Source of the DNA: an uncultured Opitutaceae bacterium
Lineage (GTDB): Bacteria; Verrucomicrobiota; Verrucomicrobiia; Opitutales; Opitutaceae
DNA: 24,000 bases
Assembly (NCBI GenBank): GCA_964471615.1
Contig: CAYYGV010000007.1
Coordinates: 33,473 to 57,472, forward strand
Direction: 5' to 3'
Part shown: positions 3,409 through 5,958 of the stretch, in pieces
How the letters are laid out: each line of letters begins with the position of its first letter
How positions within the stretch are numbered: position 1 is the first letter of the stretch
The notes under the pieces: generated by a model
Database searches by the model: none
The model's input: only the letters and a program-made list of their open reading frames with translations
What the model was told of the DNA's origin: nothing
Position numbers and translations under genes: made by a program

Positions 3409-3442
3409 TTGACGCCGAGCTATTACACCATACCGTGTAATA
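3409..3442 (+). promoter_or_regulatory. Candidate arsR promoter with an overlapping ArsR/SmtB-type operator
   Basis: A perfect inverted repeat TATTACAC-N6-GTGTAATA spans 3421-3442 and ends 2 nt before the arsR ATG. TTGACG (3409-3414), a 16-nt spacer and TACCGT (3431-3436) form a plausible sigma-70 -35/-10 pair overlapped by the repeat. A related half-site TTTTACACC lies at 3362-3370. Confidence 0.55.
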
Positions 3443-3444
3443 CT

Positions 3445-3837
3445 ATGATCGCCTTGTCGCCCAAGCGGCGTTCGGTGCCGCACGCGAACCCGTTAGCCTG
3501 CCCGCCTAAACCCGCGCTCGACAGACGAGCGCTGCTCTCGAAACCGGAGGCCCGTCGGCTGGTCGGGGTCTTCAAGGTGCTGGCGAATGACACGCGGCTC
3601 CGGTTGCTCCACGCCTTGGTGCGCGAGGGCGAACTGTGCGTGAACGACCTCGCCGGGGCGCTGCGCATGAAGCCCCAGGCCATCTCGAATCAGCTTCAAC
3701 GTCTGGCGACGGAGCAGATCGTCGCCGCCCGGCGCGAAAGCAACCAAGTCATCTATCGCATCGTTGACCCGTGTGTCACGGAGCTGCTCGACCGTGGGTG
3801 GTGCCTGGCCGAGGATGCGGTCGCGCGCCAAACATGA
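3445..3837 (+). CDS. arsR: ArsR/SmtB family metalloregulatory transcriptional repressor
   Basis: 130 aa from the ATG at 3445. The winged-HTH core reads FKVLANDTRLRLLHALVREGELCVNDLAGALRMKPQAISNQLQRLATEQIVAARRESNQVIYRI. The canonical CVC site reads CVN here, and two C-terminal cysteines are present (DPCVTELLDRGWC). The GTG at 3379 is less likely because the operator lies inside that extension. Confidence 0.85.
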   Translation: MIALSPKRRSVPHANPLACPPKPALDRRALLSKPEARRLVGVFKVLANDTRLRLLHALVREGELCVNDLAGALRMKPQAISNQLQRLATEQIVAARRESNQVIYRIVDPCVTELLDRGWCLAEDAVARQT

Positions 3838-4997
3838 GCGAAGACGCGACCACGCTGACCACGCCGGACTTTGCGGCGGCGACCCGGCAGATGCACGACG
3901 CGGCGTCAGCCAAGAAGTGCTGGCAATGTGGTTGTTTGCACAGTTCGTTGCGCGCGATCGGGGAAGCGTTCCCGAACGGCGGGTCCGCAGAGTTGGGCGA
4001 CGTGCTCGCCTTGGCCCGTTCGCGCCTGCAACCGATGCGTTATGACTGTCTCGGTTGTGAAATCTGCTGGCCGGCCCTGGCGATCAACGCGCTTGGCGTC
4101 GAGGGTGATGCCTGCCCGGCAGAGCCGGTGGAAATGCGTGCAGGATGGCCGCCGCTTCCCGGCTCCTACCAAACGTTGCGTTACCATGCACCGGTGGCCG
4201 TTTGCACCCTGACCGATGAAACACTGATGAACAGCGTCGCCGCCAGCGGGAGGGGAGCAGTTGCGATTGTGGGAACGCTACAAACGGAAAACCTCGGGAT
4301 TGAGCGACTCCTGCAGAATACACTGGCCAATCCCAACATTCGCTTCCTCGTGCTGTGTGGCACGGATTCGCGGCAAGCCATCGGCCACCTGCCGGGACAG
4401 TCGCTGCTCGCGCTGGCGCGGTCGGGGGTGGACGACCGGATGCGCATCGTCGGCGCTCCCGGCAAGCGGCCCTTGCTGCGCAACCTGAGCCGCGAGGCAG
4501 TGGAGCATTTCCGGCGTTCGGTGGAAGTCGTCGATCTGATCGGAGAAACCGACGTGCCGCGAGTCATGGAGGCGGTGAAGACCTGCGAAGAAAAGAGTCC
4601 CGGGCCGGCTGAACCGTTTGGGAGCACGCGACCCGTCAATGTCGTCACCGGCTACCTGCCTGGGCGGATGGTCTCCGATCCCGCCGGCTATTTCGTAGTC
4701 TATCCGGACCGTGACCGTGGGCTGCTGCAGTTGGAGCATTACCGCAACGACGGCGTGCTGGATGCTGTTGTCGAAGGACGTTCACCCGCAGAGCTGTTTA
4801 TTCCGGTCATTGAGAAGAACCTGATTTCCCGGCTCGATCATGCGGCCTACCTGGGCCGGGAGCTGGCTCGGGCCGAACAGGCCTTGCTGAGTGGCGGGCC
4901 GTTCGTGCAGGACGCCGCTCCAGAGGTGGAAAAGCAACCTTCAGCCAAACGGTCGAGTTGCGGCTGTAGCGGACCCTGCAAAGAAAACGAGCCATGA
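3834..4997 (+). CDS. MtrA-like (tetrahydromethanopterin S-methyltransferase subunit A-like, putative cobamide-binding) / DUF4346-like protein with N- and C-terminal cysteine clusters
   Basis: The ATG at 3834 overlaps the arsR stop (ATGA); 387 aa. The centre reads GWPPLPGSY..VAVCTL...AIVGTLQTENLGIERLLQNTLANPNIRFLVLCGTDSRQAIGHLPGQSLLALARSGVDDRMRIVGAPGKRPLLRNLSREAVEHFRRSVEVVDLIG. From memory this parallels MtrA (..CKTENLGIEKV..SNPNIR.L...G.EVKGHITG...LAL..NGV....RIIGA.G.....NL..EAVERF...VELV.L). The C-terminal DPAGYFVVYPDRDRGLLQLEHY...RLDHAAYLGRELARAE resembles DUF4346. Cysteine clusters are CWQCGC...CLGCEICW at the N-terminus and CGCSGPC at the C-terminus. Confidence 0.75.
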   Translation: MSEDATTLTTPDFAAATRQMHDAASAKKCWQCGCLHSSLRAIGEAFPNGGSAELGDVLALARSRLQPMRYDCLGCEICWPALAINALGVEGDACPAEPVEMRAGWPPLPGSYQTLRYHAPVAVCTLTDETLMNSVAASGRGAVAIVGTLQTENLGIERLLQNTLANPNIRFLVLCGTDSRQAIGHLPGQSLLALARSGVDDRMRIVGAPGKRPLLRNLSREAVEHFRRSVEVVDLIGETDVPRVMEAVKTCEEKSPGPAEPFGSTRPVNVVTGYLPGRMVSDPAGYFVVYPDRDRGLLQLEHYRNDGVLDAVVEGRSPAELFIPVIEKNLISRLDHAAYLGRELARAEQALLSGGPFVQDAAPEVEKQPSAKRSSCGCSGPCKENEP

Positions 4998-5371
4998 AAA
5001 ACCTGATAATCGCCGCATTGGCGCTCCTCGTCGCACCATGGGTGCAGGCAAGCGCCGCAGACTCTCAATCGTCCAAGGTGCCATCGCCACCGGTCCGCGA
5101 CGTAGCCGCGCACCCGGCCGCGCACGTGGGACGCCTGGCGCTGACCGGCGTGGTCGGCATCGTCACGCCGGGGAAAGGCTTTGTCCTCATGGATCTGAAG
5201 GAATATCAGGAGGAAGGATTTGCGTGCTTGGCGACAGACGAGCCGATCAAAATCGCCGTGCAGTGGACAGGAGCGGCTCCCAAGGTGAGGGAGAAGGTGC
5301 AGGTGGACGGGAAATTGGTGAAGGAGCAAAAGGGCTACGCCTTCATCGCGGAAAAAGTCAGCCAGCAATGA
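4994..5371 (+). CDS. Secreted protein of unknown function
   Basis: The ATG at 4994 overlaps the upstream stop (ATGA). The signal peptide is MKNLIIAALALLVAPWVQASA. The mature part is about 100 aa and beta-rich (GFVLMDLKEY.., KIAVQWTG.., KVQVDGKLV). I recognise no family. Confidence 0.6.
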   Translation: MKNLIIAALALLVAPWVQASAADSQSSKVPSPPVRDVAAHPAAHVGRLALTGVVGIVTPGKGFVLMDLKEYQEEGFACLATDEPIKIAVQWTGAAPKVREKVQVDGKLVKEQKGYAFIAEKVSQQ

Positions 5372-5958
5372 GCGTTGCCGTCTCCAATAAAAGATCAGCT
5401 TTGCACCGGGCGCGCTGGTTTCCGCTCGCGGTCTTCGTCGCGGTGTTTGTGTTTCACGCCCTCTATGTCCGTCATGTGAGCCGCCTGCCGGCAGCGGGTT
5501 GGGCGAACGCCGGCATCGTGGACAATGGGTTCTGGGGGTTTCACCCTTACCTGCGGGCACAGGATTATTTCGCCGGCTTTTCGTATGCGCTGGCCGCGGC
5601 GTTCGGAACGTGGGCTGTCACGCGGTTTCTGCGCCAGCGGCGCGCGGCAATGGCGGCGGGCGCGGTCGGAAGCGTTTCGCTGGTGGCGGTGCTGATGGCG
5701 GGCGGCTGTTTTTTTATTGGCTGCTGCGGCTCGCCGCTGCTGGCCGTTTACTTGAGCCTGTTCGGAGCAAAGGCCCTCGGAGCGGGCAAGCCCCTAATGG
5801 CGCTTGTCACATTGCTCTCAACCGGCTGCGGTTACTACTGCCTGTCGCCGCGCTTCAAGGGGCGCCGATTTGCCGCTGACATCTGTAGTTGCGAGTGGGC
5901 CGAACAAACTGCACCTTCCGCGGCACCTAAGCCGGGCAATGAGTCAACGACGCGATGA
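5368..5958 (+). CDS. Cys-rich integral membrane protein of unknown function (about 4 TM)
   Basis: The ATG at 5368 overlaps the upstream stop (ATGA); 196 aa. The hydrophobic segments carry intramembrane cysteines: MAGGCFFIGCCGSPLLAVYL, LLSTGCGYYCL and a C-terminal DICSCEW. The paired cysteines inside a TM helix are reminiscent of the MerT/MerC type, but I cannot claim homology. The 355-aa track ORF starting at 4891 is an artefactual extension across two real genes. Confidence 0.6.
   Translation: MSVAVSNKRSALHRARWFPLAVFVAVFVFHALYVRHVSRLPAAGWANAGIVDNGFWGFHPYLRAQDYFAGFSYALAAAFGTWAVTRFLRQRRAAMAAGAVGSVSLVAVLMAGGCFFIGCCGSPLLAVYLSLFGAKALGAGKPLMALVTLLSTGCGYYCLSPRFKGRRFAADICSCEWAEQTAPSAAPKPGNESTTR

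Follow-up and report, generated by a model that had tools for sequence, protein, structure and literature searches.

Organization of the operon

The window analyzed here is a 24,000-nucleotide stretch of DNA from an uncultured Opitutaceae bacterium of the Verrucomicrobiota (contig CAYYGV010000007.1, positions 33,473 to 57,472), and our subject is an operon of four genes at positions 3409-5958 of that window, in which an ArsR-family regulator heads genes for a cysteine-rich relative of MtrA, the cobamide-binding subunit of an archaeal methyltransferase, for a secreted protein and for a cysteine-rich membrane protein. An earlier reading of the letters, made without database searches (the sequence-only reading), had proposed for these genes a corrinoid-dependent methyl transfer or hand-off of metals and metalloids distinct from that of ArsM.

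All four open reading frames (ORFs) lie on the forward strand and have the base composition at third codon positions that is typical of coding sequence. They comprise an arsR-like gene (gene 1, 3445-3837, 130 amino acids), the mtrA-like gene (gene 2, 3834-4997, 387 amino acids), a gene for a 125-residue precursor with a signal-like hydrophobic stretch at its N-terminus (g3, 4994-5371), and a gene for a 196-residue membrane protein with four predicted transmembrane (TM) helices (g4, 5368-5958). Read directly, the frames are chained by three ATGA stop/start overlaps at 3834-3837, 4994-4997 and 5368-5371, just as the sequence-only reading had it, and its claim of translational coupling is borne out by these 4-nt overlaps, identical ones being found in distant homologous loci such as that of Fontivita pretiosa. 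Every motif it quoted is likewise present in the products: TENLGIE, NPNIRFLVLCG, a GH dipeptide, CWQCGC, CLGCEICW and CGCSGPC in the gene 2 protein, and GGCFFIGCCGSPLL, TGCGYYC and ICSC in the membrane protein.

The promoter/operator region (3409-3442, forward strand) contains a perfect 8-nt inverted repeat, TATTACAC-N6-GTGTAATA, at 3421-3442, with the core ATTACAC-N6-GTGTAAT at 3422-3441, as well as a possible -35 element, TTGACG, at 3409-3414. The ATG at 3445, the putative start of arsR, lies only 3 nt past the repeat. The core is found again, at a fixed spacing 5' of the regulator gene, at about 30 related loci that belong to several phyla, and the annotated antR promoter bears ATTACACAATATCATGTAAT, the same repeat as the window, so that ATTACAC-N6-RTGTAAT is common to both promoters. 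Because the core recurs at a constant distance in so many loci and also stands upstream of antR, we regard the operator as real rather than a product of chance. Of the operator-bearing promoter claimed earlier, it is thus the operator that is confirmed; a search for promoter hexamers with a simple sigma-70 scan returned a sole match, ATTACA-16-TATGAT at 3422-3449, that is no better than chance expectation. An Rfam scan of the window found neither a cobalamin riboswitch nor any other Rfam family.

A predicted cobamide protein with cysteine-rich ends

The gene 2 product is predicted to be a cytoplasmic cobamide protein of the MtrA fold and consists, from its N-terminus, of a cysteine-rich domain, an MtrA domain, a DUF4346 domain and a cysteine tail. 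Profile searches and structure prediction bear out the domains that had been recognized by eye. Pfam MtrA (PF04208) matches residues 102-258 (4137-4607) with an E value of 5.6e-40 and 137.2 bits against a gathering cutoff of 25, and PterinBD-DUF4346 (PF14251) follows at residues 282-360 (4677-4913; E 3.6e-21, 76.2 bits against a cutoff of 29.6). A single model of a 390-residue architecture, NF002128 (PRK00964.1-6), spans the protein end to end (residues 7-382 on model positions 7-389) at 487.8 bits, below its cutoff of 568; gene 2 shares this architecture as a more distant member, and the product name attached to the model finds no support in the gene context. A profile built from 25 homologues retrieves MtrA structures from the PDB at about 1e-43 to 1e-40 (5laa at 4e-43, and 5l8x), and the same two entries are the top Foldseek matches (E about 1e-13, target template modeling score 0.82-0.85) of an AlphaFold2 (AF2) model whose predicted local distance difference test score (pLDDT) is 72 overall and about 80-93 over most of the N-terminal cysteine domain.

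The histidine of the GH dipeptide, which the sequence-only reading had taken for the lower cobalt ligand, is H185 (codon 4386-4388). It aligns with His84 of MtrA in 5laa, and E152, in TENLGIE, aligns with Glu54; both residues are invariant in the 25 homologues. In MtrA, His84 is the lower ligand of the cobalt and Glu54 its hydrogen-bond partner, and bacterial homologues that mostly retain His84 are known to exist (PMC4915002). This conservation suggests that the gene 2 protein would bind a cobamide. Compared with the archaeal proteins (5laa, 5l8x), it has the same fold, about 40-46% identity over some 160 residues and the equivalents of His84 and Glu54; it differs in lacking the membrane anchor and the MtrB-H partners, in its additional N-terminal cysteine domain, DUF4346 and cysteine tail, and in being a bacterial protein under the control of a metal regulator.

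The cysteine clusters on either side of the two domains, noted earlier as CWQCGC...CLGCEICW and CGCSGPC, are present as described. The N-terminal motifs (3918-4118) are C29-x2-C32-x-C34 (3918-3935) and C72-x2-C75-x2-C78...C94-P95 (4047-4118), of which the second resembles a stretched ferredoxin [4Fe-4S] motif, and eight cysteines (C29, C32, C34, C72, C75, C78, C94 and C124) are invariant in the 25 homologues. Against the PDB the domain finds only a weak local match, to the ferredoxin motif CIGCELC of NuoI (E 0.36). It is a putative site for one or more [4Fe-4S] clusters. When this domain alone was compared with the protein collection, the 15 candidates scored were all short fragments or stand-alone copies, and no new architectures appeared.

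In the tail (residues 376-382, 4959-4979), the CxC of CGCSGPC is nearly invariant. The closest homologue, protein P0002 (locus L001, 8001-9248; 88% identity), carries a C-terminal extension of 28 residues that repeats the tail (...SCACGDSCKEG...DCGCDGPCEENKL), so the tail can evidently be duplicated. In other homologues a cysteine cluster lies elsewhere, in the linker between MtrA and DUF4346 (locus L087) or as ACGC repeats (Planococcus plasmid). The homologue of locus L085, only 268 residues long, is without DUF4346 and has CCSNGCCGG directly after its MtrA domain, with g3 and g4 downstream, so that DUF4346 is dispensable for the association with g3 and g4. Since a CxC or CGC cluster is always present at varying positions and DUF4346 can be missing, it is the mobile cysteine-rich arm that is the constant of the family, and not DUF4346.

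The partner proteins g3 and g4

Neither g3 nor g4 matches any model in Pfam or NCBIfam, and our literature search, which included papers on hgcAB, found no description of either. The earlier account of the two as a secreted protein and a cysteine-rich membrane protein holds. A signal peptide of about 20 residues is predicted for g3, and the members of its family have either a signal peptide or a membrane anchor at the N-terminus. In the homologue alignment most g3 proteins bear a CxxxxC pair; the clade of the window has a single cysteine, in FACLATDEP.

The g4 family is small, with 238 cluster representatives among 1.84 billion. Across its alignment the motif GCFxIGCCGSPxL in TM3 (5701-5742 in the window) is invariant, and a conserved cysteine pair follows the last helix; the window protein has a cytoplasmic CSC at 5884-5892. 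The distribution of positive charges points to a topology with both termini in the cytoplasm. In the AF2 model, which is of low confidence (pLDDT 63), the TM3 helix is broken at the CC, and a Foldseek search of this model against the PDB gave no fold match. The vicinal cysteine pair followed by xxP within a helix, together with a cytoplasmic cysteine pair, resembles the motifs of MerT and MerF. We tried g4 as a remote homologue of MerC or of CcdA and rejected both: there is no Pfam match to either MerC or DsbD_TM/CcdA, and HHalign gave probabilities of 8% and 0.8%, respectively, against the proteins of those kinds from other loci of the family. With neither profile homology nor a fold match, the likeness of g4 to mercury transporters is one of analogy only.

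The pair also occurs in settings other than that of the window. In locus L086, g3 and g4 stand between arsR and a P1B ATPase gene, with no corrinoid gene on the contig. In L087 (3285-4004; also in L088) a 239-residue protein has an N-terminal CsoR/RcnR-type (Trns_repr_metal) DNA-binding domain, linked through a single TM helix to a g3 domain in the periplasm. Its gene stands first in an operon, ahead of g4 and an mtrA-like gene, and a multicopper oxidase gene lies nearby; this protein would be a membrane-anchored one-component metal regulator, an architecture unusual for the CsoR family. The company of a P1B ATPase without a corrinoid gene, and the use of g3 as one end of a CsoR-like regulator, appear to mark g3 and g4 as parts that bind metals or metalloids rather than handle corrinoids.

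An AntR-type regulator

That gene 1 encodes an ArsR-family regulator is upheld by profile scores above cutoff (ArsR/SmtB family: NF033788, 81.1 bits against 55; Pfam HTH_5, 31.2 against 22). Its cysteines are C19, C65 (in ELCVNDL), C110 and C120. A DNA search of plasmids matched genes annotated as antR ("antimonite-responsive transcriptional repressor"), and the gene 1 protein is 58% identical (E 3e-45) to an AntR annotated by the prokaryotic genome annotation pipeline (PGAP). The best match in the PDB is 6uvu (E 2e-36, compared with 4e-11 for SmtB), whose sequence is that of the annotated AntR over aligned residues 11-119 with one residue differing. C110 and C120 of the window align with C103 and C113 of AntR, which are reported to be the ligands of Sb(III), and the two are kept across the regulator clade tied to the cassette. 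With this close similarity, the C-terminal cysteine pair and the operator, gene 1 can be assigned on sequence features to the AntR-type ArsR repressors. A reading of the regulator as a persulfide sensor like BigR or SqrR was set aside, since the protein reaches only 39.7 with the BigR model, whose cutoff is 155, and resembles AntR far more closely.

The 59 regulators found upstream of gene 2 homologues fall into two clades. The AntR-like clade includes the window and members from the Verrucomicrobiota, Planctomycetota, NC10, Nitrospirota, Gemmatimonadota, Chloroflexi and Ignavibacteria, and carries ATTACAC-N6-GTGTAAT at a fixed distance; the classical ELCVCD clade is mostly gammaproteobacterial and has a repeat of its own, TCATTTTCG...CGAAATGA. 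Since the regulator is AntR-like and the operator is shared with antR, the inducing signal would most likely be a soft Group-15 metalloid. The characterized ant operon of Comamonas testosteroni (antR-antC-antA), which confers resistance to Sb(III), thus resembles the operon described here in its regulator, with the equivalents of C103 and C113, and in its operator repeat, and differs in what is regulated, a chaperone (AntC) and a P-type ATPase (AntA) there and a cobamide-type protein with g3 and g4 here. A previously uncharacterized gene set would thereby be added to the targets of this recently described family of antimonite regulators.

Distribution and mobility of the cassette

Homologues of gene 2 number more than 3,000 in public data; they go by the name "DUF4346 domain-containing protein" or, in the annotations of the Joint Genome Institute (JGI), by "tetrahydromethanopterin S-methyltransferase subunit A". 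A scan of genomes at the species level, with the N-terminal cysteine motifs of gene 2 as the seed, yielded 72 loci from about ten phyla, including those of the isolates Dechloromonas hortensis MA-1 and Fontivita pretiosa. The association with arsR that the sequence-only reading asked to be surveyed is widely conserved, arsR lying directly upstream in 51 of the 58 loci with readable upstream sequence, and g3 and g4 follow downstream in 16 of the 51 with readable downstream sequence. Other family members are under ELCVCD-type ArsR, MerR or CsoR-like regulators: one lineage has a CsoR-like regulator instead and neighbors that include a multicopper oxidase, the Paraburkholderia versions have a divergent merR, and further versions lie on small mobilizable Planococcus plasmids.

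In loci that lack g3 and g4, other genes can stand with the mtrA-like gene. In gammaproteobacteria a MerC-like gene precedes it, and genes for a thioredoxin-fold protein (with SPSC, not CxxC) and a DsbD_TM/CcdA protein follow; in Nitrospirota there is a DJ-1/PfpI gene, in locus L013 an ArsM-like methyltransferase gene directly after the mtrA-like gene, and in still other loci no partner. The surrounding genes are of the kinds usually met in metal-resistance islands and transposons and encode P1B ATPases, CusB-like membrane-fusion proteins with large resistance-nodulation-division (RND)-type pumps (the pumps assigned by size and adjacency), cation diffusion facilitator (CDF) transporters, Acr3, ArsC, MerR, a chromate transporter, a Tn3 transposase and recombinases. 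ArsM-like genes lie near the cassette in only four loci.

Genes for Tn3-family transposases or serine recombinases were seen within a few kb of the cassette in Dechloromonas hortensis (L043, 10537-13116), in a gammaproteobacterial metagenome-assembled genome (MAG) (L053, 7811-10747) and in a Phycisphaerales MAG (L004, 5058-6626). Such neighbors, together with flanks that differ between close relatives, suggest that the cassette moves horizontally. Degraded copies were also seen. In L073 (152-710) the N-terminal cysteine domain is joined directly to a remnant of g4, probably by deletion; L074 (6004-6384) has a stand-alone N-terminal cysteine domain of 126 residues; and in L077 (5911-6141) an antR-like gene is followed by a truncated N-terminal domain.

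Fusions and a link to HgcAB

The partnership of the MtrA-like protein with g3 and g4 is also seen within single polypeptides. The MtrA-like part is followed by g4 in P0067, P0084 and P0280, the order is reversed in P0272, P0322 and P0355, and P0109 consists of an MtrA-like part, a TM helix and a g3 domain. The topologies of these fusions are consistent with an enzyme in the cytoplasm and a g3 in the periplasm.

A g4 domain is fused as well to proteins of the HgcA type. P0342, P0360 and P0380 have Pfam CdhD with G[IV]NVWC[AS]AG, the diagnostic cap-helix signature of HgcA, and then a multi-TM domain; P0380 has in addition two Fer4 motifs and terminal cysteines, like HgcB. Loci L080 and L081 share the order arsR (ELCVCD type), g3, g4::HgcA and HgcB (ending in CCS), with overlaps of 1 nt and 4 nt at the first two junctions and hgcB after a short gap; the g3 of L080, upstream of g4::HgcA, is recognized by our hidden Markov model at an E value of 1e-33. 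In L079 g3 precedes a g4::HgcAB gene. The contig of L080 also encodes, at 1658-4153, a protein like the alpha subunit of hydrazine synthase (HZS_alpha), and on account of this gene its host is probably an anammox planctomycete, with an HgcAB-type system that has an extra g4 domain.

Because g3 and g4 are fused or adjacent to both MtrA-like and HgcA/HgcB-type proteins, the pair appears to serve two unrelated cobamide folds, both with iron-sulfur (Fe-S)-type motifs, a terminal cysteine pair and ArsR-type control. The hgcAB genes have themselves been tied to a co-transcribed, arsenic-responsive ArsR-like regulator and to neighboring ars genes (bioRxiv 10.1101/2022.10.17.512643; PMC7438021). The two systems are thus alike in having a corrinoid domain, Fe-S-type cysteine motifs, a terminal cysteine pair and a membrane domain, an ArsR-like regulator often at the head and ars genes near, and, most tellingly, the same g3 and g4 adjacent or fused. 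They differ in the corrinoid domain, which in HgcA is of the CdhD or corrinoid iron-sulfur protein (CFeSP) type with a cap-helix cysteine in NVWCAAGK and in gene 2 is an MtrA Rossmann fold with histidine as the lower ligand; in their layout, since gene 2 carries its Fe-S-type domain N-terminally on the same polypeptide and the membrane part is a separate 4-TM protein; and in that many hosts of the gene 2 cassette are aerobes and its activity is putative. The gene 2 protein shows no CdhD match and no N(V/I)WCA(A/G)GK motif, and with histidine in place of cysteine it is an analogue of HgcA, not a member of that family. It shows no Fer4 match either, having one CX2CX2C...(15)...CP and one CX2CXC where HgcB has two CX2CX2CX3CP motifs and a C-terminal cysteine pair, and its likeness to HgcB, the C-terminal CxC and the cysteine motifs, is a resemblance only.

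Proposed function and alternatives

The reading we favor, at somewhat less than even chances, is that the operon encodes a system that resembles HgcAB in function but has a corrinoid fold not homologous to that of HgcA. A cobamide bound to the protein would exchange a methyl group with a soft metal or metalloid held by thiols, which would most probably be Sb(III) or As(III) and might be Hg(II). We favor this reading because of the MtrA match with its invariant cobalt-ligand residues, the cysteine sets, the fusions to the MtrA-like protein, the fusions of g4 to HgcA-type proteins and the AntR-type regulator. The earlier proposal of corrinoid-dependent methyl transfer or hand-off distinct from ArsM is strengthened by the fusions, the regulator and the g3 and g4 shared with HgcAB; the binding of cofactors, the cysteine relay and the methyl transfer, with its direction and substrate, are inferred.

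On this proposal a soft metalloid, with Sb(III) or As(III) the likeliest, would release an AntR-type repressor from ATTACAC-N6-GTGTAAT. The g3 and g4 proteins would then move the thiol-bound metal or metalloid across the inner membrane by way of the GCxxxGCCGSP helix and the cytoplasmic cysteine pair of g4, and the MtrA-like protein would receive it on its flexible CxC tail. The tail might bring it to a methyl-cobamide that the MtrA domain binds in the His-on state, where the methyl group would be exchanged between cobalt and the metal or metalloid. The N-terminal cysteine domain, probably with a [4Fe-4S] cluster, could re-reduce Co(II) to Co(I), and the cobamide would be re-methylated by a separate donor, perhaps docking through DUF4346. 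In its logic such a scheme resembles mercury uptake by MerP, MerT, MerC and MerF, with a periplasmic binder, a small membrane protein with paired cysteines and a cytoplasmic enzyme with a cysteine tail, and MerC-like genes replace g4 in the gammaproteobacterial loci; it differs in the membrane protein, g4 being without the Pfam match or the HHalign support described above. With ArsM, the S-adenosylmethionine-dependent methyltransferase of As(III), it possibly shares the net outcome, methylation of a Group-15 metalloid; ArsM has an unrelated fold and cofactor and is a single soluble enzyme without membrane partners.

Several points weigh against this proposal. The g3 and g4 genes accompany only about a third of the family loci (16 of 51) and occur with a P1B ATPase alone in L086, so that they may be generic metal-handling parts and not specific to methyl transfer. 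The g3 of the window is without the cysteine pair typical of g3 proteins, and with a low-confidence model of g4 the geometry of the relay is conjectural. Some fused HgcAB-type proteins have been treated as paralogues of the methylating enzyme whose activity is uncertain (PMC7438021). No methyl-donor methyltransferase of the MtrH, AcsE or MetH-like kinds is encoded in the operon or the window, and many of the hosts (Nitrospirota, NC10, Opitutaceae) are aerobes, in which it is difficult to keep cobalt as Co(I). To our knowledge, the fused HgcAB-type proteins that were tested did not methylate mercury. Our literature search, finally, found no published experiment or paper on any member of the family, no paper that mentions DUF4346, and none that relevantly links MtrA homologues to mercury, arsenic or ArsR.

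The operon could instead act in thiol or redox chemistry or in sequestration, without methyl transfer. The Fe-S/cobamide protein would then be a low-potential reductase of Hg(II) or of Sb(V)/As(V), a feeder of electrons to a DsbD-like relay, or a cysteine-rich chaperone, and g3 and g4 a thiol relay that maintains envelope cysteines in the reduced state, or a path for metal to an efflux pump. Such a role would suit the thioredoxin-fold and DsbD_TM/CcdA proteins of gammaproteobacteria and the DJ-1/PfpI protein of Nitrospirota that take the position of g3 and g4, the redoxins and the fusion of CoA-disulfide reductase and rhodanese near some loci, the pairing of g3 and g4 with a P1B ATPase alone in L086, and the characterized ant operon, which pairs a cysteine chaperone, AntC, with an ATPase (PMC12641948). 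The thioredoxin-fold partner, however, has SPSC and not CxxC, and a conserved cobamide site would be superfluous in a pure chaperone. Corrinoid reductases such as the reductive dehalogenases hold their cofactor base-off, without a histidine ligand. The invariant His-on/Glu network of gene 2, in contrast, is the ligation of methyltransferases and mutases (PMC4915002), and we judge this alternative unlikely, if a serious contender.

Methyl transfer might also run the other way. As an organometal(loid) demethylase, the protein would use cob(I)amide on its MtrA domain to take the methyl group from methylmercury, methylarsenite or methylantimony bound to the cysteine tail, a role like that of MerB or ArsI, with g3 and g4 importing the organometal. 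A stress-responsive repressor, resistance islands and transposons in other genomes and the MerC-like genes of the gammaproteobacterial versions all fit this picture, and so does the logic of mer operons, in which mercury is imported (by MerT, MerP and MerC) and then transformed; the absence of a methyl-donor gene from the operon fits it as well as or better than methylation. We know of no precedent, however, for a corrinoid-dependent demethylase of organometals, an acceptor for the methyl group downstream of cobalt is equally without a candidate, and the partnership of g3 and g4 with HgcAB-type genes points to methylation if those act like characterized HgcAB. We consider demethylation rather improbable.

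Cobamide or cobalt housekeeping under metalloid stress, with the protein storing or protecting corrinoids or helping to re-load B12 enzymes that thiophilic metals and metalloids have damaged, and g4 as a corrinoid or cobalt transporter, would account for the pairing of g4 with both MtrA-type and HgcA-type corrinoid domains, and a cobalamin transporter with a cysteine ligand, BtuM, does exist. It is made very doubtful by the regulators, which are sensors of soft metals and metalloids (AntR-type, ELCVCD-type ArsR, MerR and CsoR-like), by the lack of a cobalamin riboswitch among the Rfam matches to the window, by the g3 and g4 of L086 with a P1B ATPase and no corrinoid protein on the contig, and by the g3 domain on the periplasmic side of a CsoR-like regulator, which fits metal sensing.

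Ordinary one-carbon metabolism, with gene 2 as a genuine subunit A of methyl-tetrahydromethanopterin:coenzyme M methyltransferase, has the JGI names and the name of NF002128 in its favor and is hardly credible, since the protein falls below the equivalog cutoffs (TIGR01111, 135.3 against 249; NF002128 as above), ends in DUF4346 and a cysteine tail rather than a C-terminal membrane anchor, has no mtrB-H genes with it in the window or the surveyed loci, and is paired with metal regulators in bacteria of about ten phyla, not in methanogens. The name "tetrahydromethanopterin S-methyltransferase subunit A" is accordingly misleading for thousands of bacterial proteins.

Returning to the HgcAB-like reading, corrinoid/Fe-S methyl transfer to metals and metalloids under ArsR control is known in principle, and what would be new is a catalytic scaffold not homologous to HgcA and two undescribed accessory families. 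A bolder form of it, which we think unlikely and put forward only tentatively, is that the cassette encodes a second corrinoid-dependent metal(loid) methylase, independent of hgcAB, that has Sb(III) or As(III), and perhaps Hg(II), as its substrates and travels on mobile cassettes in bacteria that are for the most part aerobic or microaerophilic (Nitrospirota, NC10, Verrucomicrobiota, Planctomycetota, gamma- and zetaproteobacteria, and Planococcus plasmids). As far as we know, hgcAB are the only genetic marker used to predict microbial production of methylmercury, and the native function of HgcAB is still debated. If the reading is right, a parallel cobamide-fold system resides in organisms that are not screened, which would change metagenome surveys of methylation potential and offer a genetic basis for methylated metals and metalloids in settings where neither hgcAB nor arsM accounts for them; it would suggest, too, that HgcAB-type systems originally served to handle metalloids under ArsR control. 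The two HgcAB-associated proteins brought to notice here, g3 and g4, as accessories shared by both systems, offer a concrete way to test what HgcAB-type systems natively do and how methylation arises in organisms free of hgcAB, and culturable hosts are at hand in Planococcus kocurii ATCC 43650 (plasmid), Dechloromonas hortensis DSM 15637 and Fontivita pretiosa.

Surroundings of the operon in the window

The sequence-only reading had placed the operon in an "As/Hg island". The arsenic part of this description holds: downstream lie genes for an extracytoplasmic function (ECF) sigma factor (7055-7606) and an anti-sigma-like protein (7599-8351). They are followed by genes for an ArsM-like methyltransferase at 8372-9526 (NF040538 is the closest model, with a score under its cutoff), for a PHO4/PiT-family transporter at 9490-10629, for ArsS, the radical-SAM enzyme of arsenosugar synthesis, at 10284-11606 (430.8 bits with TIGR04167, whose cutoff is 300), and for a DUF547 protein at 11528-12433; these four look like a cluster for organoarsenical biosynthesis. 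The mercury part is overstated, as the MerR-family metal regulator (ORF 17755-18858, domain at residues 238-366) is not mercury-specific: it scores about equally for ZntR, MerR, CadR and CueR, below cutoff in each case. The gene divergent from it, on the reverse strand at 17273-18016, encodes a zf_CopZ protein (NF047645, [quoted passage not shown], 133.7 bits against a cutoff of 100).

A tight linkage of the cassette to the ArsM/ArsS cluster was considered and rejected. Synteny with the closest relative, an Opitutaceae MAG contig, stops at position 6312, the organoarsenical-type cluster is absent from that relative, and only the four loci mentioned have an ArsM-like gene in the vicinity of the cassette. 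At the break in synteny, a 145-residue ORF (6320-6757) aligns with the Cation_efflux (CDF) profile, of 198 positions, over positions 75-190 only; it is either a CDF transporter that has been cut short or a small membrane part that stands by itself.

Upstream of the cassette (554-943 and 1128-2779) lie a DUF302 gene and genes for a DUF5667 protein and an ECF sigma factor. The same order of DUF302, DUF5667 and ECF genes is found in the Opitutaceae MAG contigs L001 and L002, where it comes after genes for a P-type ATPase, BacA (of the undecaprenyl-diphosphatase family), FTR1 and Fur.

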